A stretch of DNA of 10,650 nucleotides, from the NCBI GenBank assembly GCA_045105515.1, contig JBGCDR010000097.1, positions 1 to 10,650 of the forward strand. Direction: 5' to 3'. Origin of the DNA: Oligoflexales bacterium (GTDB lineage: Bacteria > Bdellovibrionota_B > Oligoflexia > Oligoflexales > Bog-1112). The stretch's first letter is position 1. Each line of letters starts with the position of its first letter. The notes under the pieces are model-generated. The model ran no database searches and was not told where the DNA came from. It was given only the letters and a program-made list of their open reading frames with translations. A program made the position numbers and the translations under genes. Positions 1-10,650 of the stretch are shown here, piece by piece.

Positions 1-37
1 TCTCATACCTTTGCTCATAAGTGAGATTGGCAGACAT
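1..37 (-). CDS. 5' end of a gene running off the window (MSANLTYEQRYE...), possibly an IS30-like transposase or other HTH protein
   Basis: On the minus strand AAGAAAGGGGTATTT (SD-like) directly precedes ATG at 37-35, and the frame is open to the edge. LTxEQRYE resembles the LTxEERxxI start of IS30 HTH domains, but only 12 codons are visible. Confidence 0.35.
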   Translation of the reverse strand, partial: MSANLTYEQRYE

Positions 38-388
38 AAATACCCCTTTCTTGCAAGCAGATTAGCCTCATAGACTAAACTAAATCCGCCTTCCGAAGCG
101 ATGGAATTTTTTCTTCTGCACTTAATCTAGCAATCCGCCAAACAATAAGCTCTTGTTCGACGGTGTTTGATTCTATTTCATCCAAAGTATCTTCATCTTA
201 GATTAGCTGATAAAGATTGCGATCGATGGGCCGGTGGCAACCCGGTAGAACAATAAAAATGTAAAGACTATTTTGATATTTCCTATCTTTATTTTTGAGC
301 CTTTGTGTAGATTTAGTTACGATTCAGCAGGTGGACGAAAATATATATATTCTGATAAGATATATTGTACCTAAATTATGGAGTATTT

Positions 389-820
389 ATGGGCGAGCTA
401 TCTAATGAAACCAAACTTTCTGACAAAGTATATAAAATATTGATTGTGGATGATGATCAAAATTTAATTGATTCAGTCGCTTTAATTATTAAAAGCGAGA
501 TTATAGAAAGAATATCGATTCATGAGTCGACAGATGCGGAAGATGCTATGAATTCAGCCTCCAAAAATAAATACGACTTGATGATTATAGACTATAAACT
601 TCCAAAAATTAATGGTGATGAGTTAATAAGATATGTAAGAAATTCTGATTTAAACAAAGAATGTCCGATTATTTTTGTGTCAGGCTATTATACCCAATTT
701 GAAGATTCAAAAGTCGTGGATAGTTTCAAAAAAGTCATTTATATTAAAAAACCTTTTAATGTTAATCACTTATCGAAACATCTCAAATCACAGCTATTTT
801 CATCTAATAAAGAGCTATAA
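389..820 (+). CDS. Single-domain response regulator receiver (CheY-like), 143 aa
   Basis: ILIVDDD acidic pocket, DLMIIDYKLP phospho-Asp, IIFVSG (conserved S/T), YIKKPF (conserved K-P); no output domain. Start moved from TTG 365 to ATG 389 because GGAG at 380-383 precedes it. Confidence 0.93.
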   Translation: MGELSNETKLSDKVYKILIVDDDQNLIDSVALIIKSEIIERISIHESTDAEDAMNSASKNKYDLMIIDYKLPKINGDELIRYVRNSDLNKECPIIFVSGYYTQFEDSKVVDSFKKVIYIKKPFNVNHLSKHLKSQLFSSNKEL

Positions 821-901
821 GCAGTAGTAATTGAGAAAACACCCGATAAATGACCTAGGTATTATATCGGTAGCCATATATACTTTTTGCAGGATCAAAA
901 T

Positions 902-1306
902 ATGAATAAGACCTATCAATTATTGATAATAGAAGACGATGAAGCTTCGCGAAGACTACTGGAACGAAGCTTGTCAGCCTATAAAGCACTCAATCTCAAA
1001 GTGCACTCTTTTGTAAATGCGGAAAATGGCATTGCAAGTTGTAAAAATTATGATTATGATTTGATAATTACAGACTATAAATTGCCAGGTATGGATGGTT
1101 TTGAGTTTATTAAAGAGTTTCGCAAATTAGTAGGGGATGATTCTATCCCTATCATTTTCCTCTCGGGATTCTTTAAAGAATTAAAAATGGAAAACAATAA
1201 ACATCATTTTGAAAATGTCATGTTCTTAGATAAGCCTTTCGATATGGAAAAACTTTTTTCTAGAATTTCGATACTTCTTCGAATTAGTCATTATTCTAAT
1301 ATCTAG
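902..1306 (+). CDS. Single-domain response regulator receiver (CheY-like), 134 aa
   Basis: LLIIEDD, DLIITDYKLPGMDG, IIFLSG and FLDKPF receiver motifs. AGGA at 891-894 precedes ATG 902. Confidence 0.93.
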   Translation: MNKTYQLLIIEDDEASRRLLERSLSAYKALNLKVHSFVNAENGIASCKNYDYDLIITDYKLPGMDGFEFIKEFRKLVGDDSIPIIFLSGFFKELKMENNKHHFENVMFLDKPFDMEKLFSRISILLRISHYSNI

Positions 1307-1448
1307 TTAACCATATGAGACTACTCGAATTATATTTAGTCCCAGTACCAGTGACAATGTTATTTTTTAGACCGAAGATGGGTTTAACCAAAAGAATATT
1401 GACATAAAATGCGATAACTTTTAAAGATTTTGATTTTGATACCTAAGC

Positions 1449-2685
1449 CTATTTATTTAGATCTGCCCTGTCGCGACAAAATTTGCGCATTTTTGCTTCG
1501 CTGCCGATCTTATACTTTCCACCTTTATCAAGGATAGCTTCATTATTTCATAATATCCTTTTGTAGAAGCAAAATCAGCGGGATACCGGCCTTTTTGGTT
1601 TATTAAATTAAAATCTGCATTATCATCCAGTCCCTCATTTAAAAGCTCTAAATCTTTGTATTTATTTGCTGCATGAAGAGGATAATCATCTTATTTGTTT
1701 CTAAGCCTGAATCATAGCCGCTTAAACATGAGGCTATTGATTTCTGAGATCCTGAAAATACCTTAGTGGTGATTGGGCAAGCAGAAGTGTTCGAAGCTAT
1801 TTGATTATTTTTAGTATTTGCAATTTTTGCTGCAATTGCAGCGACAATTACAAGGGAATGTTTCTTTTCTACCCATTTTTTAAGACTACCTTCGGAGGTT
1901 CAGCAAATGAGAAATTCACTGAAATCAACTATGTCAGACATTGAAAAAGCACAAAAAGCTTGTAAAGCTGAGCCAGCAAAACCGATGGAAACTGCGTTCA
2001 AGACAGATCCCATAAAGTTTACACCTGACTCTATAGCCATTTTTCTTTGTAAACTGCTTTTCAAGCTATTTGTATTAATATTTTTTTGAAGTGCTTGAAT
2101 ACCTTTAATAGCAGTGGTATTGGCTATAACTGCCTCTTGCAGATCTTTAATAAAAAATACATTCTTTGTATTGTTTAACTCTCCGCGACGATCAAATCTA
2201 ATTTCTTGCTCTTTGCTGCTTACCCCATCTTCGCAAGATTTATCTAAAATTAGCCTGAAAATAGTCCATTGATTTTCATTAGAGGTGAACTTAGCAGACA
2301 TTGATAAACCATTTTGGATAAAGCCATTTCTCTGTTCCAAGTCTATAGATCCGGTTCGGTAAGAATAAATCACAAATGAGTAGAAAAATTTCATTTGATG
2401 GACATCTTCAATCAGTCCTGAAAGCTCATCTAGTTTCTTAAGTAAATCAATTATGCCAGTGCTTTCTTCAATGAGTTTTTTGTAAAATAAGCTTAGGTGT
2501 TTTTGCTGTTTTTTTCCATATTCAATGTAAACTTGTGAGACTGGGCTAAAATCAGAAATATAGTTTTCTTCAAGCGCATTAATCTGCAGATTGCTGAGGC
2601 GAGAGAGGGGACTAAGGTCTGTCATCTAGATAATCAATGTGAGGTTTACAAGTCCTGATAGAGGGCTAAGGTCAGAGACAGCCAA
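1449..2685 (-). pseudogene. Disrupted gene: internalin-like LRRs, helical/coiled-coil region, C-terminal ankyrin repeats
   Basis: In frame upstream of the 2625 ATG: LAVSDLSPLSGLVNLTLII* then TDLSPLSRLSNLQINALEENYISDFSPV (xDLSPLxxLxNL LRRs). Past the TGA at 1902-1900, protein-like sequence continues through frameshifts near 1810, 1692 and 1534. 1690-1535 reads DDYPLHAANKYKDLELLNEGLDDNADFNLINQKGRYPADFASTKGYYEIMKL and the shifted frame continues LDKGGKYKIG...LNK* (stop 1451-1449), giving about two ankyrin repeats. Confidence 0.8.
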
Positions 2686-2724
2686 TTATTTCAATGAATT
2701 TATTGCCTAAAATGTCTAAAAAAA

Positions 2725-2740
2725 ATCATAAAAATATGAT
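2725..2740. promoter_or_regulatory. Palindrome ATCATA-N4-TATGAT within A-tracts, possible operator or -10 element
   Basis: Perfect 6-bp inverted repeat upstream of the LRR/ankyrin pseudogene; reads TATGAT on both strands. The very AT-rich context weakens it. Confidence 0.2.
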
Positions 2741-2999
2741 AAAAAAAAATTAAGTTTAACCTAAAAAATATCTCAAAGATTACTGTTATTTTAAATGGTA
2801 GTTCTCTAGTCCTTAGCAATCAAAGGCTCACATTTTCCTTGTAATCTGATGTTTTTGATTTAGCAGGTAATAAATCTCAGTTTTTAAGATTCCCTACTAA
2901 ACTATCCAAGGGCTATTTTTTAGATCAGTGATTAATTCTGACGACTAACCAAATCTACAATCTTGGACTTGGTAATCAGCTAACTATAAGTAGACGGCC

Positions 3000-3270
3000 T
3001 CATAAATTACTTATGAACTGCTCAAGATGTCTTTGATCTTCGAGATTCATATTGAGATACTGAACTCAAGGATCACCGTTATATCAGGTTTTTCACCTCT
3101 GATAGCGAGACAGATTGCTAATTCAACAGAATTGGGATTAACTATTCTGAGCACTTTTGCCTGAAAGTTTATAGACTTTGGTGGGTATTCAGCCGTAAAT
3201 CAATACACAGCTCTAGTAGTTGATCTTTTTCAATTGACAAGCGATTGATATCTACTAATAATTGTCCGGA
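3000..3270 (-). pseudogene. PilZ-like domain remnant with two single-base frameshifts
   Basis: Three consecutive frames join (shifts near 3196 and 3067) to SGQLLVDINRLSIEKDQLLELCIDL / TAEYPPKSINFQAKVLRIVNPNSVELAICLAIRGEKPDITVIL / (G)VQYLNMNLEDQRHLEQFISNL* (stop 3002-3000). This matches the PilZ C-terminal pattern LxLxIxL...IxxxAxVxRx...GVxFxxxxxxxxxxLxxFI. The RxxxR motif is not seen. Confidence 0.6.
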
Positions 3271-4640
3271 TCACTTTTGAGGTTTACGACTTTGGAATAA
3301 AACTTTCCTATATTACTACTTTCTGCATAGGGTGTTGGTTTTACTCCTGCTTCAAAAAGATAATACTTGTCGGCTAAATAACCTTCACCAGCTGCGGCAT
3401 ATTGCTCATTTACTTGCCAAACGCGGTGACAATTAGCTAGCTCAGCACAGACATCTTGAGCCTTTTCTAAACTGTCAAAAGATCTTTTGTTGCCATCATT
3501 TTTTATAACCTTTGCATGTCCGTCCTTGTCAGGAAACATAGAAACATCACTTGATGTCCACAAGAAATGAAAGGTTCCTCTTTTTAAAATATATTTTAAG
3601 TCATAGTCTTTTGTATTAATTTCTATTCCCGCTTTAAAAAGATAGAAAAAGCCGTATGAAAGGCGCTCCGAACCAAAGATTGGATTAACTCCTGCCGCTG
3701 GTGTCCAGACTGCTGCACAATTGTCAAGTATTTCACACTCAGTTTTGGCCTCTTCAAGAGTGTTAAATATTATATTTAAATTATCTTTGTCTCTAATCAA
3801 AATATTTTCTACTTTTAGGGGGTTCCCCCTAGTATCTCTATATGTCCAATTTTTATCCATAAAATTAACTATCTCTTTCTCCACGGTTTCTGATAAATCT
3901 AGAGAAAACGAAATTAATTCGGTAAATTTTAGCTCTTCATCTGTTTTACTCTTTGCTTCTACAAATACCTTAAATTCCTTTGCGGTTAAAGTTTCCAATG
4001 ATTGCAACTTGTCATCAACTAACTTAAATAAAGCATTATCATTTTTGTCTTCTGTATCAACAAGAGAAAAAGTATATTCAATGTCGTTGGCATTGACCAC
4101 CTCGAAGCTACCTATTAAATTATCTTCACCCACTGAGGAGCTTACCTGAAAAGTAATACTTTTTTCCGACTCTTCAGATGTATTTTCTGCAAAACTCAAG
4201 GTAAGTGTAGACTCAAATTCATTAGTTCCATGCTGAGCTTTTATTTTTAGAGTAAAGCTTTTGTTAGTATCTATTTCATTGCTATTTATGATATGGGAAC
4301 TGTTTAGCTCGAATAGCTCATAGTCAGTTCCATCACTATTTAAAATCTGAAAATCTATTTTTAAATCTGAGGAATTGCCATCGGACAATACTGCATTTAG
4401 GGCAGCAATCTTTGTATTGGGTTCAATTGGATTTTCTTGCTTATTAACTAAAATATCTACGTTTATATCTTTAATTTCTTTGGTTTTATCATCATCTTCT
4501 GTATCTTGGCCTTGCCCTTCACTGTCAAACTTCTCCCCATCCTGCTCCGTCCTCATTTGATCGGTATCCTGACGACTTTGCTCACTACTTTGATTGCAAG
4601 AGAATAAAAGAAAAAATAAGCAAAAAAAATGGTATTTCAT
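3255..4640 (-). CDS. Lipoprotein with two cadherin-like domains and two tandem C-x5-C repeats (putative adhesin), 461 aa
   Basis: GGAG at 4653-4650 precedes ATG 4640. MKYHFFCLFFLLFS-C lipobox (Cys15), then an acidic linker. YTFSLVDTEDKNDNALFKLVDDKLQS and IDFQILNSDGTDYELFELNSSHII resemble bacterial cadherin repeats. The C-terminus has two similar units FxxLExAxxxCxxLxNCxxVW...YLFxAG. Confidence 0.85.
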   Translation of the reverse strand: MKYHFFCLFFLLFSCNQSSEQSRQDTDQMRTEQDGEKFDSEGQGQDTEDDDKTKEIKDINVDILVNKQENPIEPNTKIAALNAVLSDGNSSDLKIDFQILNSDGTDYELFELNSSHIINSNEIDTNKSFTLKIKAQHGTNEFESTLTLSFAENTSEESEKSITFQVSSSVGEDNLIGSFEVVNANDIEYTFSLVDTEDKNDNALFKLVDDKLQSLETLTAKEFKVFVEAKSKTDEELKFTELISFSLDLSETVEKEIVNFMDKNWTYRDTRGNPLKVENILIRDKDNLNIIFNTLEEAKTECEILDNCAAVWTPAAGVNPIFGSERLSYGFFYLFKAGIEINTKDYDLKYILKRGTFHFLWTSSDVSMFPDKDGHAKVIKNDGNKRSFDSLEKAQDVCAELANCHRVWQVNEQYAAAGEGYLADKYYLFEAGVKPTPYAESSNIGKFYSKVVNLKSDPDNY

Positions 4641-4732
4641 GTATAAAGGCTCCACACATTTAAATTCTCGAAGATCAAAGCTTCTTCAACATAATTAATA
4701 TCTCTACAACTAATAGTTTGAGGTAACCTTAC

Positions 4733-4740
4733 TTATCGGC
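4733..4740 (-). promoter_or_regulatory. Possible sigma-28 (FliA)-type -10 element GCCGATAA
   Basis: Exact match to the sigma-28 -10 consensus about 90 bp upstream of the lipoprotein start, in the right orientation. No TAAA -35 at the expected 15-bp spacing. Confidence 0.25.
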
Positions 4741-4823
4741 GAAAGTCTATTTTCGACAACATATATTTTGTAAATGACTATTATATATGGGTTTATGTAA
4801 GGACTTGAATCAGCATAAAAAGC

Positions 4824-5015
4824 TTGGAATGGTATTCCGTTTATCTTGAAGGCATCGAGTTGAATCATGAGTCAAGTTCTGTAAGCAGAATCGTAACCTC
4901 GATCACAGATGCTCAGAGGAATAGTGACTACGAGCAACTCAAAAATAATACATTAAAATTATGCAAATGCGTTATAAAAATGGACCAAAAAGCAGAAAGG
5001 ATTTCTCCTCACTGA
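4824..5015 (+). other. Short ORF or gene fragment of unknown status (63 aa)
   Basis: TTG start with no clear SD and no recognisable motif; may be a decayed gene fragment or spurious. Confidence 0.15.
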
Positions 5016-5105
5016 AATCATTGAAGTCTGCTACATCTCACCGCATATTTACATTCCAACTGAATCTACCTGCTCTTTAAAAAGTCTGGGGATTAGAATT
5101 ACTGT

Positions 5106-5365
5106 CTGAATACCAAGAAAATTGGTTAAACTTACGATCTAAATTTTCCCCGATTGATTACCTTCAAGACAATAAATCCCAACATCACCCTTGCGAATAA
5201 AAAGGATTACTTGACCGTGGCAGTTTTTGAGAACCATCCTCCAGAAATTTATCTTTTAACCCATCTTCTTAAATCGCGACATAGTAGATTTGTGGAAATT
5301 TTACTAAAATATTTTTTTGTTGGTAATGACATTGAACATATTGTAATTGGTATAACGGCTGATAT
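5106..5365 (-). pseudogene. Degraded paralog of the TIGR02594-like hydrolase at 6229-6702
   Basis: 5246-5106 translates FWRMVLKNCHGQVILFIRKGDVGIYCLEGNQSGKI*IVSLT--NFLGIQ versus FWRVTPKEWCGHVSVFIREDETGIYCLGGNQIGKVQIVSYSKNNLLGIR in the intact gene (26 of 49 columns identical, counted by hand). TAG at 5141-5139. Weaker upstream matches: SRFKKMG* vs ARSYLKIGE, CSMSLPTK vs CEVSIPPK. Confidence 0.85.
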
Positions 5366-5393
5366 CTTTTTAACGAATTGTAAGGGAAAAGTT

Positions 5394-6206
5394 ATGCTCA
5401 AGCTGATGCTGTTGTCTTTTGTTATGCTAAGCGATGGTTTTGTGCCCAAAAAAAACATTCACCTTGTCTCCAATCCCTATCCACATTCAGAAGTGACTGA
5501 AAGTTCAAGATTGTGTGCCTATCATCGTGATGTCCAAAAAATTGAAAACGCAAAAACAAACGTTGATATTAAAAATATATTTTGTACTGTAAATAAGCAA
5601 TTGTTGAAAGTTGGCCTTTATTTACCAGGATTAGCCCTTACAGGTGCTGGTGTTGGAACAACATTTGGTGGTCTGATCTTAGGAACTTTCATACCTCCCA
5701 TTGGTGAACCAATAAAAGCCGCCGGAATAATGGTTGGTATTGTGGGCGTCGCATTAGCAGATCTAGGTGGTGATGATGGATATTCAATTTATTCTGATGA
5801 AAGCTGTTACCAGAAGGCTCTTCATCAGAAATACTACATGCCACTTAACCTCCTAAGTGATCAAATCCAGGAATTGAAGTCTCAAATTGAAACTGAAATG
5901 AGTTCATCCAATGAACTAGTCTCTTTTAACAAAAAACATGCCAAGTCTATTATGGCAAATGGCTTGAATAAAAGTTCGCCAAAAGCGGAACTTTTATTTG
6001 ATAGAATATTTGCCTCTGAAGATAGCACCATACTCGCCTCTGATTTTGTCGAAAAAACTCGCGAACTCAGAGAAGAGTCCTATATGCTTCTAGGTCTTAA
6101 CAATGATGAAGGCCTTAATGTGATGATGAATGCAGTTATTCTTGACTTTTACAATGAATGCTTGGTCTTTGATCCAGAGTCACAAATCTCATTTCAATTG
6201 GAGTGA
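5394..6206 (+). CDS. Putative exported/membrane protein with Gly-rich hydrophobic hairpin and coiled coil, 270 aa
   Basis: AAGGGA precedes ATG 5394, and MLKLMLLSFVMLSDG is signal-like. The hydrophobic stretch VGLYLPGLALTGAGVGTTFGGLILGTFIPPIGEPIKAAGIMVGIVGVALADLGG (5610-5771) is followed by heptad-like LNLLSDQIQELKSQIETEM. Confidence 0.8.
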   Translation: MLKLMLLSFVMLSDGFVPKKNIHLVSNPYPHSEVTESSRLCAYHRDVQKIENAKTNVDIKNIFCTVNKQLLKVGLYLPGLALTGAGVGTTFGGLILGTFIPPIGEPIKAAGIMVGIVGVALADLGGDDGYSIYSDESCYQKALHQKYYMPLNLLSDQIQELKSQIETEMSSSNELVSFNKKHAKSIMANGLNKSSPKAELLFDRIFASEDSTILASDFVEKTRELREESYMLLGLNNDEGLNVMMNAVILDFYNECLVFDPESQISFQLE

Positions 6207-6228
6207 TGCCCGCCTAAAAACTTATTCT

Positions 6229-6702
6229 TCAAAAACTTAAATTATTTTTTTTCATGGATTTCGACTGAATCCCAAGAAATATAATGTAAGATAAGTATGG
6301 CATTTGGTATTCAAATTCTTTTCTAATCCCTAGAAGATTATTCTTGCTATAACTCACAATCTGCACTTTGCCTATTTGGTTCCCACCTAAGCAATAGATA
6401 CCTGTTTCATCTTCTCTTATGAAGACGCTCACATGCCCACACCATTCTTTGGGGGTAACCCTCCAGAACACAACGATATCCCCTATTAAAGGTTCATAAA
6501 CTGGCTCCCCAATCTTGAGATATGATCTTGCAACTTGAGGTCTGGGAGGCAACTCGTAGCCAATTTCAGAAAGTAAACTTCCCACTAACACGCCACACCA
6601 ATTAGCCTTTGGAGGTATTGATACCTCACATTGATTCGCATACTCTGGATTATATTTTGTCCCGTAGGCTGAAAGGGCACCAAGAATAATCTGATTATCC
6701 AT
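6229..6702 (-). CDS. TIGR02594-like protein (CHAP/NlpC-P60 superfamily, putative peptidoglycan hydrolase), 157 aa
   Basis: Family motifs NWCG (catalytic Cys), ARSYLKIG, PxxGDIVVFWR, GHV (catalytic His), LGGNQ and LLGIR. ATG 6702 is preferred over 6735 because GGGTGG precedes it and it overlaps the upstream frame's stop (ATGGATAA). Confidence 0.88.
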   Translation of the reverse strand: MDNQIILGALSAYGTKYNPEYANQCEVSIPPKANWCGVLVGSLLSEIGYELPPRPQVARSYLKIGEPVYEPLIGDIVVFWRVTPKEWCGHVSVFIREDETGIYCLGGNQIGKVQIVSYSKNNLLGIRKEFEYQMPYLSYIIFLGIQSKSMKKNNLSF

Positions 6703-7174
6703 TGACCCACCCGATAATTCTGCTGTTAACTTCATGAGGGAACTTGGTTTCTACGCCTTCCTGCTCCAAATAAATTTCATTATCAATTACCCTGCAGCGC
6801 ACTCCGTAAGACTTAAGGCTTGCAGAAACCTGGGAATGCTCTCTTCAGCTTAAGCAAACCAAGTTTTCACTCCCGTAATATGAAGATTTTCCTATTCTGC
6901 ACCTAAAATCATATTCTAAGCAATCACATTCTCCATTTTCACCCGTCAAATGCAAGAGGATCACCCCACTACACTGAGAATACTCAGAAAGAATTTTGAT
7001 TTTTTCTCCATTCTTGATAAAGGATTTCTCAAATCGATCGATGGATAGGTTGGCATCAAGCTTTCTTTTGAAGGCGTTAAGGGGCTCTAAGTTTTTAGAA
7101 TGCCCTGAAACCCTTTGCTCTAAGCTATCTGTCTTGCTTGTGTAAGTATTCTGCTCGGACTCAGTCTTGGCTGA
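6695..7174 (-). pseudogene. 5'-truncated unknown gene with one internal TGA, coupled to the hydrolase gene
   Basis: 160-codon frame (SAKTESEQ...ENLVCLS*REHSQV...SRIIGWVNG*) with a single internal stop (TGA 6847-6845). Its TAA (6697-6695) overlaps the hydrolase start. No start codon at the 5' end. Confidence 0.55.
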
Positions 7175-7228
7175 CTATTAACTTTTACATCTGTCTTAAA
7201 ATTCGTGCTTATTTGAAAATTGATATTG

Positions 7229-8068
7229 TTAATTTTCCATAATTTGCATGCAAACTGGACAGGTGTCGCTTTTGGAATACCATGCCTCTATACATGGAAT
7301 ACAAAATACATGCCCACACCCTATTTTCCAGCCATTGGATTTTACACTATCTAAGCAGATTGGACACTCAAGGTAATGTTTTTGATCCGAATAAGGTACT
7401 CCAATTTTTAACAATTCACTATCTTCCCAGTGGCGATTCTCAACATCTAATTCATGAGGTATTTCTTCTCCGTAGATTGTAATTAATCTATTTAGCTCTT
7501 CATCTTGAAGAAGCCACTGAACTTTTGATCTATCTCTTTTTGGCAGTTTTAAAAACTCAATATTGCTCCAAATTCGATCAGCAAAGACAAAAAAAACTGT
7601 AGGCCACAGAAATAATGTTGCAAGTGTGGCACTATAAAAGTATTCAGAAAGATCTTTAGGAGTTATAAAGCAGTTTTTTACGAAACTAGCGAAACTTACT
7701 GCACAAACGCTACCTGTCATTAGGGATAGAAGGCGCGGAAATTGCAAGCTTTCTTTGGTTGAATATTTTTGTGATATTGGTCTATATACCTTTAGTTTTA
7801 AATGTTTCACGGGAGGAATTTTTAGATGATAGCTCACACCACCCCTACGAACTAAGTAGCTATATTCTTGGTTGGTCGTATTAGGTTCTATGGCAGTATT
7901 TTCTATTTCAAAGGGTTCTATCTGTGTAATAAGAAGTCTTTCTCTATCTTGAAAAGAACTACCATGAAGTCCTAAAAGGACCTCAATCTCATACTGACTA
8001 CTTGAAAATGAATTCGACGAAAATATTATGCCAATTGCAAAAACAATAATATTAAAAACACATTTCAT
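7229..8068 (-). CDS. Signal-peptide protein with two hydrophobic helices and a C-terminal C3HC4 RING finger (putative E3 ubiquitin ligase-like), 279 aa
   Basis: AGAGGA SD at 8083-8078. MKCVFNIIVFAIGIIFSSNSFS is signal-like. Hydrophobic segments LLSLMTGSVCAVSFASFV and YFYSATLATLFLWPTVFFVFA. CPIC-x12-CGHVFCIPC-IEAW-x6-CPVC (7366-7250) equals C-x2-C-x12-C-x-H-x2-C-x2-C-x10-C-x2-C. Confidence 0.92.
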   Translation of the reverse strand: MKCVFNIIVFAIGIIFSSNSFSSSQYEIEVLLGLHGSSFQDRERLLITQIEPFEIENTAIEPNTTNQEYSYLVRRGGVSYHLKIPPVKHLKLKVYRPISQKYSTKESLQFPRLLSLMTGSVCAVSFASFVKNCFITPKDLSEYFYSATLATLFLWPTVFFVFADRIWSNIEFLKLPKRDRSKVQWLLQDEELNRLITIYGEEIPHELDVENRHWEDSELLKIGVPYSDQKHYLECPICLDSVKSNGWKIGCGHVFCIPCIEAWYSKSDTCPVCMQIMEN

Positions 8069-8086
8069 AACTAAAAATCCTCTACT

Positions 8087-8117
8087 ATTGTACTAATCAA
8101 GTTGACAAGTAATCAAC
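8087..8117 (-). promoter_or_regulatory. Putative sigma-70 promoter of the RING gene overlapping a short palindrome
   Basis: Minus strand TTGATT (8116-8111), 18 bp, TACAAT (8092-8087). Overlaps GTTGA-N7-TCAAC (8101-8117) and a TAATCAA direct repeat (8094-8100, 8110-8116). Confidence 0.35.
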
Positions 8118-8277
8118 TGTACGAAGATCTGTATCCGTACTTTAAATTGGCTGGAATGTAAATATTTTAATTGAGTATTAAGTAAATCTACAAAGATACC
8201 ATTGACATCATCAAAAACACTTCTTTTATTAGTTTATCCTGCAGACAGGGATTTATTCGAAAGATAACCTTTTAGGA

Positions 8278-8305
8278 TTGACAAACAAGACATACATCTT
8301 ATCAT
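8278..8305 (+). promoter_or_regulatory. Putative sigma-70 promoter of the 8339 gene
   Basis: TTGACA (8278-8283), 16 bp, TATCAT (8300-8305), about 30 bp upstream of the start codon. Confidence 0.5.
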
Positions 8306-8338
8306 CAAGCCCTTGTTCTCTGGTTATGGGATTTGATG

Positions 8339-9406
8339 ATGCAAAAATTTCTCTATTTTATTATCGTTATCAATTTTTTTGAAGTAACTGCCGAGGCCAA
8401 TAGCCTTAATACAGATACCATGATGCAAGTTTTATGCGCTGATGACGCTGTTTCTAAACAATCGTGTGCGAAAGTTAGAGATGAGCATGGTAGAGAAATT
8501 TGGAAAGATTTTAGTGTAATTCATGCCTCCGGTGAGGTTTCAAAAATTACTGATTTTAGGGATCTTGAATGGTTACTGGGTGAAGAGCTAGATAATGTTA
8601 AAAAAACTGCTTTAATAGAGCAAATATACAACATGCCAGAATTTTTTTCTTATTGCAATTATAAGTTACTTAGTGATTTGTGGACAACACAAACTCAAAA
8701 TACAGCGGCAGAAAACCCATGGGTTTCATCGCTAACTGGACTTACGTGGCTGAAACCTGAACCTAGATACCTGAGGGCAATTTCCAATTTTTTACATGTA
8801 CGACTTCTTTTTTACTCTGAAAAAATTGAAAAAGAATTAAAAACGAAAGAGGAACTCATATACCATGCTTATAATCTATTATTTGTAATGAATGCTTTTA
8901 TCAAATATTGCCATGCAACATCCACTCTAGTTTATAATGAAAAAACAAAACAAGCTGCTAGATATGCCGGATACCATTCAAGTTTAAGTGATATTGCAGT
9001 TTATAAATTAGGAGATTCATTTGATCCAGAGAAAATAAAAAAGGTTGTTTGGACAGGTCGCTTAAAAATACCAGAATCGATGATAAAATTATCTGCAACA
9101 AAAATAGGGTCGATTCCTTTTGATCAGAATAAAAGTCCGGGAAAGTATCATCGCTTCGTATATCGGACTATTGAAAAATTAACTCTTTTGTATTTGATTG
9201 ATCATTTCGAAAATTTTTTTAATTATGTTTATAAAGAGGCTCAAAGTTACTCTTCATTCAGGCCGGACGAAGCGCTTCACTTTTTTGATAGCTGGGAATC
9301 CTTTAAAATAGATTCCAAAAAAAATATTTCAAAATCTGGTAAATATTATTTCACTCCTTGGTTTGAGAAAGTTGAATCTGTATTGTTAATGGCTGGATTC
9401 GAGTAA
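8339..9406 (+). CDS. Hypothetical exported protein, about 355 aa
   Basis: Long ORF in AT-rich DNA. MQKFLYFIIVINFFEVTAEA is signal-like with an A-x-A site. The start could be 8333, 8336 or 8339. No family recognised. Confidence 0.82.
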   Translation: MQKFLYFIIVINFFEVTAEANSLNTDTMMQVLCADDAVSKQSCAKVRDEHGREIWKDFSVIHASGEVSKITDFRDLEWLLGEELDNVKKTALIEQIYNMPEFFSYCNYKLLSDLWTTQTQNTAAENPWVSSLTGLTWLKPEPRYLRAISNFLHVRLLFYSEKIEKELKTKEELIYHAYNLLFVMNAFIKYCHATSTLVYNEKTKQAARYAGYHSSLSDIAVYKLGDSFDPEKIKKVVWTGRLKIPESMIKLSATKIGSIPFDQNKSPGKYHRFVYRTIEKLTLLYLIDHFENFFNYVYKEAQSYSSFRPDEALHFFDSWESFKIDSKKNISKSGKYYFTPWFEKVESVLLMAGFE

Positions 9407-9543
9407 AAATAACCTGCTGGCTCTGAATCGTATTGCCTGTTTCTTAGGCTCCAATTATTTATTGCTTTGAACATATACCTAGTTTTGCTATTCTCGTTCC
9501 TTGGCTGTATTGACAAAACCCATATATATAGAAAAAACAAAAA

Positions 9544-10449
9544 ATGAAAAAACATTTATTGCTGTTTTTAATAATCTATCCAATATTTGCCTCGAAAGCC
9601 TTAAGCTCTGCTGATCCAAGCAATGGAATGTTACATGAAATTGACTCAGATTTTCAAAGTAATAACTTACCCATAGCTATTGCTAGCCTTGTAGAATCTG
9701 ATAATTCTCACGAAGACAAAAAGTTGGACCTAGATAATTTAAAATATTGGGAGTTGTATGATGTGTTTAGTCAGCGTTTTTCTCATTGGTTGTGTGAAAA
9801 GAGTATTAACTCATCGGTTGATGCTGGTAGATTAATTATTTCGTTATACTCTGTCTTTAAAGCCTCACATTTTCTGATCGATGAAATAGCAAGAAGCGCC
9901 GCTAAGAAAGCTATTTTATCTGGAGTACTTTACGATTACAAAAAACATGCAGATCTAATGAGACATGATCCTATAACTCGCATGATTGGTCACTATGTTT
10001 TATCAAATAATGCGTATTCTAAATACAAAATAAATTTCGATGGTATTTACAATTTGGATATAGATTTTTGGTCAGTTTGTCATATCGGATACTTCAGAGG
10101 CGTCGGTTCCAAATATGATAGATCAAGCATAATGGCAGTGCGTAGGAAAATAATTAATTCTTTTATGTATGATTCAATTTGGCATGCAACCTTTGAATCG
10201 GTTTTCCAAACTTATACAAAAAATCATCCATGGAAAGATTTAGGGCATATCGCTTTAAAGAGATCCAGATGGTTGATGGCCAAGCATATGTATTTGAATT
10301 TTCACTACCTACTTGATGAAGCTTACAATGCAAGAAACAAAAAAGTATGGAAACCTTCTGAAATTGAACTAAATCGAACTTTAGATGAACTGGAAGAATT
10401 AATTCCAAAGAGTTTTACAATTTTGGAAATTTTAAGAAATTCTAGATAA
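9544..10449 (+). CDS. Hypothetical exported protein, 301 aa
   Basis: Long ORF with signal-like MKKHLLLFLIIYPIFASKALS; aromatic-rich, probably helical body. No family recognised. Confidence 0.82.
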   Translation: MKKHLLLFLIIYPIFASKALSSADPSNGMLHEIDSDFQSNNLPIAIASLVESDNSHEDKKLDLDNLKYWELYDVFSQRFSHWLCEKSINSSVDAGRLIISLYSVFKASHFLIDEIARSAAKKAILSGVLYDYKKHADLMRHDPITRMIGHYVLSNNAYSKYKINFDGIYNLDIDFWSVCHIGYFRGVGSKYDRSSIMAVRRKIINSFMYDSIWHATFESVFQTYTKNHPWKDLGHIALKRSRWLMAKHMYLNFHYLLDEAYNARNKKVWKPSEIELNRTLDELEELIPKSFTILEILRNSR

Positions 10450-10552
10450 CATGCAATAACGTTTTTTTATGTAAATTCTGATCTATGGATTAACCAACTA
10501 ATTGGTTTTCTTAAATGCCAATCAACAGTTGAAACTCCTGGTATAGGCCGAT

Positions 10553-10650
10553 TTAGGCACTTGGTAAAATTCTCATCAGCATTCCAGCAGCTAGTCTACC
10601 GAAGATGTGCAAAGATAATCCTTGAGTTGACCTAACTTTACTTGCCATTT
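10553..10650 (-). CDS. Possible 3' end of a gene entering from the right edge, loosely like an IS982-type DDE transposase C-terminus
   Basis: Frame open from the edge: MASKVRSTQGLSLHIFGRLAAGMLMRILPSA* (TAA 10555-10553). The RSxxGLxxxIxxxLxA pattern recalls DDE transposase termini, but only 31 residues are visible. Confidence 0.3.
   Translation of the reverse strand, partial: MASKVRSTQGLSLHIFGRLAAGMLMRILPSA

Follow-up and report, generated by a model that had tools for sequence, protein, structure and literature searches.

A Canonical RING-HC Finger in a Putatively Exported Protein of an Oligoflexales Bacterium

Results

A RING Gene on Contig C97

The window analyzed here, 10,650 nucleotides of DNA from an uncultured Oligoflexales bacterium, is the whole of contig C97 (JBGCDR010000097.1) of its genome bin, which we refer to as G000. 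It contains an intact gene for a protein of 279 residues, P0001, which combines a signal-like N-terminus and two hydrophobic helices with a C-terminal RING finger of the eukaryotic type. A preliminary description of the same DNA had proposed this gene together with a bacterial Shine-Dalgarno sequence, naming no strand, and had read a signal-like N-terminus and two closely spaced hydrophobic helices from its product. We find an intact open reading frame (ORF) on the minus strand, and both hydropathy peaks and the helices of an AlphaFold2 model agree with the proposed anatomy (Table 1). The hydrophobic N-terminus is the true one, because upstream of the ATG just 8 codons are open, with no start codon among them. 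A promoter-like site (TTGATT-18-TACAAT) lies farther upstream; across the region such sites are not above chance (7 versus 5.9 +/- 2.5 in shuffles). The RING gene is single-copy in G000, its codon usage is typical (31st percentile of distance within the genome), and its GC content at third codon positions is low (4th percentile).

Table 1. Features of P0001, its gene and the surrounding contig (AF2, AlphaFold2; KD19, mean Kyte-Doolittle hydropathy over 19 residues)
Feature	Position	Strand	Remarks
Whole gene, protein P0001	7229..8068	-	279 codons + stop, ATG start, intact ORF
Shine-Dalgarno-like AGAGGA	8078..8083	-	9 nt 5' of ATG, sequence reading
Residues 1-23, signal-like N-terminus: MK, 14-residue hydrophobic core CVFNIIVFAIGIIF, SSNSFSS	8000..8068	-	KD19 1.93 at 3-21; crude signal rule passed; AF2 helix 2-20
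Residues 24-111, orphan region, predicted beta-hairpin 69-84	7736..7999	-	AF2, mostly low confidence
Residues 112-134, hydrophobic helix A, marginal membrane span	7667..7735	-	KD19 1.55 at 113-131; AF2 helix 110-132
Residues 144-167, hydrophobic helix B	7568..7639	-	KD19 1.62 at 144-162; AF2 helix 137-173
Residues 174-182, basic cluster KLPKRDRSK directly after helix B	7523..7549	-	+5/-2 over residues 168-182
Residues 235-273, RING-HC (C3HC4) finger	7250..7366	-	Pfam, HMM match at same coordinates, AF2, Foldseek
TIGR02594-like gene, adjoining the RING gene	6229..6735	-	60.4 bits, below 70.55 cut-off
CheY-type receiver genes, single-domain, two (365-820, 887-1306)	365..1306	+	Pfam Response_reg 67.3 and 70.5 bits
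Neighbor ORFs, orphans without Pfam family	1900-2625, 3255-4655, 5154-6206, 8333-9406, 9544-10449
Left terminal repeat, end A	1..141	.	79 places on 74 contigs of G000
Right terminal repeat, end B, sequence differs from end A	10510..10650	.	16 places on 16 contigs of G000

The RING Finger Is Canonical

The ligands of P0001 are spaced C235-x2-C238-x12-C251-x-H253-x2-C256-x2-C259-x10-C270-x2-C273 and fit the cross-brace pattern C-x2-C-x(9-39)-C-x(1-3)-H-x(2-3)-C-x2-C-x(4-48)-C-x2-C. All eight zinc ligands had been claimed before, along with an Ile, a Trp and a Pro of the surface that binds the ubiquitin-conjugating enzyme (E2), and we could locate the latter at I237, W263 and P271. Trp263 and Pro271 occupy positions of the E2-binding surface. 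The hydrophobic residue before the second Cys is an E2-contact position according to the report on the bacterial ligase SneRING (PMC12591485). Searches with HMMER against Pfam confirm the domain: zf-C3HC4 (PF00097) reaches 40.6 bits (cut-off 21), zf-RING_2 (PF13639) 39.4 bits (cut-off 27.3) and zf-C3HC4_2 38.2 bits (cut-off 27), with zf-RING_UBOX and zf-RING_5 likewise exceeding their own cut-offs, whereas Prok-RING_4 stays below its cut-off (16.6 bits versus 27). When P0001 is aligned with 68 single-RING hits (69 sequences), there is no variation at C235, C238, C251, C259, C270, C273 and P271, and at least 90% of the sequences keep H253 and W263.

Among solved structures, the closest by sequence is RNF4 (3.4e-10), accompanied by the EHV-1 RING, HRD1, gp78, RING1B, RNF126, RLIM and RNF13. 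These closest solved relatives are RINGs of active ubiquitin ligases (E3s), several or many of them solved together with an E2. An AlphaFold2 model, built with an alignment of RINGs, reaches a predicted local distance difference test score (pLDDT) of >90 at residues 230-279. All PDB hits that Foldseek listed for this model are RING E3 domains, the best of them superimposing with a root mean square deviation of 1.2-1.3 A over 45-49 columns and about a third of the rows deviating by 8-19 A. The best E value is 1.4e-3, and no hit attains E <= 1e-3 because the domain is short. The RING of P0001 is a canonical eukaryote-type RING-HC finger. Its nearest counterparts are anonymous proteins from marine metagenomes and MMETSP (45-58% identity), with the RINGs of its own family at 31-41%; as these nearest RINGs are anonymous, the domain spans 45 residues and the global pool is vastly larger, a donor cannot be named.

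The N-terminal Part of P0001 Is an Orphan

Outside the RING, P0001 has a loop of 11 residues between helices A and B and a helical linker between the basic cluster and the RING, and AlphaFold2 confidence is low except in the helices and the RING. The N-terminus was classified by a crude signal rule of our own (it requires a basic residue, a hydrophobic core free of charges, and small residues at -3/-1), which misses obvious cases (L002, L007) and lets through a doubtful one (L010). In a search of 5.8 billion clusters by word index, the 366 candidates contained no relative of residues 1-230 other than P0001 itself. An exhaustive HMMER search of 1.84 billion protein representatives with the full protein returned 940 hits; among the 149 other proteins listed, the best-scoring stretch always fell within residues 157-279, mostly 225-279, and never within 1-156. 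A search of the ESM Atlas gave nothing usable, a six-frame search of 94 other genomes of the order found a single match, at chance level (E 1.6e-3, 3 stops), and none of the 72 matches from a pattern scan of genome contigs was confirmed as a relative of P0001.

A protein with such a history might be a young, lineage-specific orphan, in which a captured, exon-like RING piece has been joined to random or fast-evolving sequence and serves little or no function. The missing relatives of residues 1-230, the absence of an orthologue from a genome of the same genus (G012) and the low model confidence beyond helices and RING would all fit such an origin, as would a contig that is AT-rich, covered to only ~69% by its nine main ORFs and bounded by high-copy repeats. 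We nevertheless consider it quite improbable, given that 279 codons are intact behind a ribosome-binding site, that the eight ligands and three E2-surface residues are all preserved, that codon usage is genome-typical and that the RING gene shows no variants across three samples.

The Contig Is Bacterial

The G000 bin comprises 6.29 Mb in 461 contigs and is 90.9% complete and 4.8% contaminated. C97 is lower in GC than the genome (34.4% versus 38.3%) and ranks 196/203 by tetranucleotide distance. Together with the level of contamination and a RING that is nearer to marine and MMETSP RINGs than to those of its family, these values could point to mis-binned or chimeric DNA of a eukaryote or a giant virus, and thus to a RING gene that is not bacterial. 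We regard this as highly improbable. C97 encodes two CheY-type receivers, which give 29 and 61 tblastn high-scoring segment pairs on other G000 contigs, and four further ORFs have paralogues elsewhere in the bin (25-69% identity). The repeats at its two ends lie at contig ends in 91 of their 95 places and occur on 87 contigs (C97 and 86 others; 1.34 Mb in total), including three of the six that bear nucleotide importers; end A moreover recurs many times in G012 at 83-90% identity. RING genes are, in addition, a trait of the whole family (see below).

A separate assembler independently recovered the contig: for two runs, the Logan assembly has positions 113-10539 in a single contig of 10,427 bases that shows 0 differences, and for a third run in two overlapping pieces. 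Depth is even across the unique part (12.6, 36.8 and 41.6) and higher at the ends (about 150-280x for end A, about 30x for end B). The three runs stem from one study, labelled plant metagenome, and possibly represent the source data; they test the assembly and not the biology, and no host is derived from them. The possibility of a chimeric or contaminant contig, raised in the preliminary description, is not borne out by the receivers, the shared end repeats and the independent assembly. C97 is bacterial DNA and no chimera, and its RING gene is a true gene of the bacterium.

The interior of the repeat element is absent from the bin. A few Logan contigs join end A (139/141) directly to end B (10514) or to position 9899, with a shorter side of 22-27 letters.

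Nucleotide Importers and RING Proteins in the Family

We surveyed 95 genomes of the order, 16 from the family of G000 (f1) and 79 from 15 other families, as defined by the search tool. The family genomes are kin and not independent, and their pattern is read as one clade-level trait rather than as a statistic. TLC/NTT nucleotide importers occur in 16/16 f1 genomes (1-6 copies) versus 0/79 genomes of the other families. G000 harbors six full-length copies (on C74, C181, C166, C40, C393 and C190), one of which shares 91% identity with an Oligoflexales bacterium gene and 55-59% with Chlamydiia genes; chlamydial proteins, at 55-59% identity, are the closest importer relatives outside the family. 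Matches to the PF00097 RING show a similar distribution, with 14/16 f1 genomes versus 2/79 others: 0/35 in f2-f14, 1/22 in f15 (a 24-residue frame, 23 bits) and 1/22 in f16 (G088). RING counts per f1 genome reach 16 (G016), 9 (G011) and 8 (G017), and the genes are not stray fragments, since contigs of 112 and 370 kb carry some of them. For the other f1 genomes, the reported sizes are 1.8-4.6 Mb. The bacterial family of P0001 appears to depend on eukaryotic cells.

G088 itself has 13 RING matches, its six congeners having none, and is reported as 100% complete with 8% contamination; its RINGs may represent contamination or a second independent expansion.

From 40 regions fetched we collected 47 distinct ORFs with the RING ligand pattern. 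Five ORFs with a truncated 5' end, a duplicate and all ORFs shorter than 150 residues were set aside, leaving 36, of which 26 (~72%) begin with a signal-like sequence, compared with a background of 1316/4164 (32%) among G000 ORFs of at least 150 residues. Most RING proteins of the family bear a signal and no later span. Others carry one: L036 and L037 show a signal, a RING and then a hydrophobic segment, and L033 of G011 a signal, a RING, an armadillo-like stretch (by eye) and a hydrophobic, tail-anchor-like segment at the C-terminal end. Whichever way these three proteins are read, their predicted RING lies beyond the bacterial inner membrane. The paralogue search in G000 that the preliminary description had suggested returned other RING proteins, P0001 itself being single-copy. 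Signal and RING are found together in proteins on C303 and C427 and in a small protein on C57 (L005), which adds an IBR-like part below the Pfam cut-off. A protein on C56 (L003) combines ankyrin repeats, a RING and an IBR-like part (IBR 21.9 versus 24.3), and a third arrangement, SNF2-RING-helicase with a signal-like N-terminus, is encoded on C188 (L006). An F-box-like match scores 26.2 bits. A search of G000 for E2 and ubiquitin genes gave none, and its control was silent as well.

By eye, both L031 (G011:C25) and L033 (G011:C21) combine signal, RING and armadillo-like repeats. At L021 (G016:C75:6500-10829) three 269-residue paralogues lie in tandem, all of them signal-like at the N-terminus and ending in a RING.

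Neighboring Genes

The window gives no hint of an endogenous partner for the RING: none of its nine ORFs matches the ubiquitin-activating enzyme (E1), E2 or JAB families of Pfam at E <= 0.1, and PADLOC assigned no defense family to any of the seven ORFs submitted to it. Several neighboring ORFs are signal-like or lipoprotein-like by eye, for example with ...LFSC in an ORF of 466 residues, and three of the orphan neighbors have diverged paralogues elsewhere in G000. The TIGR02594-like gene has a paralogue on C28 (69% at the protein level) and is, besides the end repeats, the sole DNA match of C97 in G012 (71% identity; L060, G012:C334). Its G012 counterpart lies amid phage-tail-like genes, as judged by eye, with no RING gene nearby.

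Discussion

Topology and Export of P0001

The location of the RING depends on how the three hydrophobic segments of P0001 are used. The N-terminus may be a putative cleavable signal or, alternatively, a signal anchor. Against 70 membrane-helix peaks taken from six G000 transporters, helix A ranks at the 23rd percentile and helix B at the 33rd, and the flanking charges amount to +2/-1 in the 15 residues before helix A, +1/-2 in the inter-helix loop and +5/-2 in the 15 residues after helix B. A signal followed by helix B as the sole span would obey the positive-inside rule, and the RING would then be cytoplasmic in the bacterium. The rule would be obeyed equally by a hairpin that enters a host membrane from its cytosolic face, with the RING and both flanks remaining in the cytosol of the host.

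The first of these arrangements underlies the main rival to an exported RING. Here, P0001 would be a resident inner-membrane protein with its signal cleaved, residues 24-143 including helix A in the periplasm, and a cytoplasmic RING whose action is not directed at a host: it would mediate zinc-dependent interactions or supply the ligase for a bacterial tagging system not yet recognised. The basic flank after helix B and the near-neutral loop before it suit this topology, and of the three segments helix A has the lowest hydropathy. It is at odds with the lack of E1, E2, ubiquitin-like or JAB neighbors, with a RING that passes the eukaryote-type models and fails Prok-RING_4, and with the family, whose RING proteins mostly bear a signal and no later span, so that their RING would usually be exported. 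A match to UQ_con is also absent from G000, in a search with a silent control. We judge a resident protein to be unlikely.

The charges alone favor a cytoplasmic RING, whereas the family pattern favors its export, and the balance tips modestly toward a RING outside the bacterial cytoplasm. The preliminary description had reached this location by way of a cleaved signal and two spans; the location gains from the family-wide signal pattern, whereas the distribution of charges speaks against the two spans. Its further proposal of a delivered protein does not hold in the form given, as a protein held by two inner-membrane helices would not simply be deliverable, and the helices would have to escape integration. 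For the export itself, a Sec plus type II route is predicted to be available: G000 encodes a GspG-type pseudopilin (T2SSG, 96.2 bits), a T2SSL (GspL) match below its cut-off (22.5 bits) and one FHIPEP-type export gate, and TssC was not found in this genome.

A Candidate Host-directed Ubiquitin Ligase

Our preferred reading, which we hold to be slightly more likely than not, is that P0001 is a host-directed mimic of RING E3 ligases that anchors in a membrane. Its N-terminal signal would allow it to cross the inner membrane by the Sec route, as suggested by its sequence and by the pattern of the family. The weakly hydrophobic helices would not become locked in the bacterial membrane and could instead serve as a hairpin anchor in a host-derived membrane. 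There, the RING could recruit host E2~ubiquitin through Ile237, Trp263 and Pro271 and ubiquitinate host proteins or proteins of the bacterial surface, with the orphan N-terminal 230 residues contributing to localisation or to the choice of substrate. P0001 is probably one of many exported proteins by which the family tampers with the protein-tagging systems of its host. The host-directed role put forward in the preliminary description accordingly fits the lineage, with its importers and its numerous, mostly signal-like RING proteins; the topology on which that role depends is not secured. The same text had named host or prey as the target, and prey makes sense only if it is eukaryotic.

Several observations weigh against this interpretation. 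The residue after the last ligand is Met274, where RNF4 has an Arg at the aligned position; an Arg or Lys there is the usual 'linchpin' of active RING E3s, from which Met274 departs. Helices A and B are weak, yet lie within the range of real G000 spans and could integrate in the bacterial membrane. A cleaved signal followed by two spans would put the basic flank outside and the loop inside, contrary to the positive-inside rule, and a RING with 7 cysteines would have to cross the periplasm. The p-value of the enrichment is overstated, given a crude signal rule and RING paralogues that are not independent of one another. Searches for U-box, OTU and UQ_con came back empty, which shows little, as the control genomes were silent too. 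Finally, P0001 is a singleton without an orthologue in the same-genus genome, and purifying selection on it therefore cannot be shown.

A wider reading, which we offer tentatively and regard as rather doubtful, would make f1 an unrecognised clade of parasites of eukaryotes, equipped with a Sec-signal secretome of ubiquitin-ligase mimics (RING, RING-IBR, RING-armadillo and tail-anchored forms). P0001 would be its hairpin-anchored, Inc-like member and would display its canonical RING toward the cytosol from a host or vacuole membrane. If this were true, canonical RINGs would be deliverable by a Sec-dependent route, which is not yet described for bacterial E3 effectors.

Proteins of this kind are already known in the form of bacterial RING E3s; what is new is the lineage, the fully canonical RING and the layout of a signal plus a hairpin. 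Few bacterial RING E3s have been studied so far, and its canonical RING should make P0001 easily testable with standard panels of E2s. The more interesting result is a family-wide set of signal-bearing RINGs in a clade of Oligoflexales that carries NTT importers. If this pattern holds, it would mark out a new lineage of host-dependent bacteria in a phylum noted for predation on other bacteria, and one would have to ask by what means zinc fingers rich in cysteine reach a host along a Sec-dependent route. A full-text literature search for 'Oligoflexales' and 'ubiquitin' gave no paper on such a link, judged by titles, and Oligoflexales are unmentioned among the matches listed for nucleotide transporters and intracellular life.

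Comparison with Known Systems

Endogenous prokaryotic ubiquitin-like operons with membrane-bound Prok-RING fingers were reportedly described by Burroughs, Iyer and Aravind in 2011. These operons share with P0001 a RING-like finger on a bacterial membrane protein. Membership of P0001 in such an operon was rejected, as E1, E2, ubiquitin-like and JAB neighbors are absent and Prok-RING_4 misses its cut-off.

SneRING (SNE_A12920) of Simkania negevensis is described in a report from 2025 as a bacterial RING E3 with ligase activity and a partial association with host endoplasmic reticulum and mitochondria (PMC12591485). P0001 would resemble it as a RING-type E3 of a bacterium living in eukaryotic cells and in an association with host membranes, and in both proteins the remainder lacks informative similarity. 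According to the same source, the RING of SneRING is N-terminal, its ligands are atypical, with His and Asn substitutions, and the E2-contact position is a Ser. P0001, in contrast, has a C-terminal, canonical C3HC4 RING with an Ile at the E2-contact position, a signal-like N-terminus and two hydrophobic helices. A relationship in sequence between the two is undetectable beyond the fold, and the activity of SneRING has been demonstrated, whereas that of P0001 is predicted.

A bilobed hydrophobic domain is found in the Inc proteins of chlamydiae and in other effectors of vacuole membranes. The Inc proteins are type III substrates without Sec signals and are not known to carry a RING. P0001 looks Inc-like in that its two close helices of ~20 residues are joined by a short loop and flanked by charges, and both of its ends would face the host cytosol. 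P0001 differs from the Inc proteins in its Sec-like signal and its RING, and just one FHIPEP-type gate is encoded in G000.

Among eukaryotic ligases, membership in the PA-TM-RING family (RNF13, GRAIL, plr-1) was rejected, since a PA match is absent and the fifth ligand is Cys256 and not His, making the RING of the HC and not of the H2 type. Unlike these proteins, P0001 has no PA or other luminal domain detected with Pfam, and the similarity is limited to ~45 residues. What P0001 shares with the PA-TM-RING proteins, and with HRD1 and gp78, is the order of parts, with a signal or luminal portion followed by one or more membrane helices, a basic stretch, a linker and the RING, and the RINGs of RNF13, HRD1 and gp78 are among the closest solved structures to its own.

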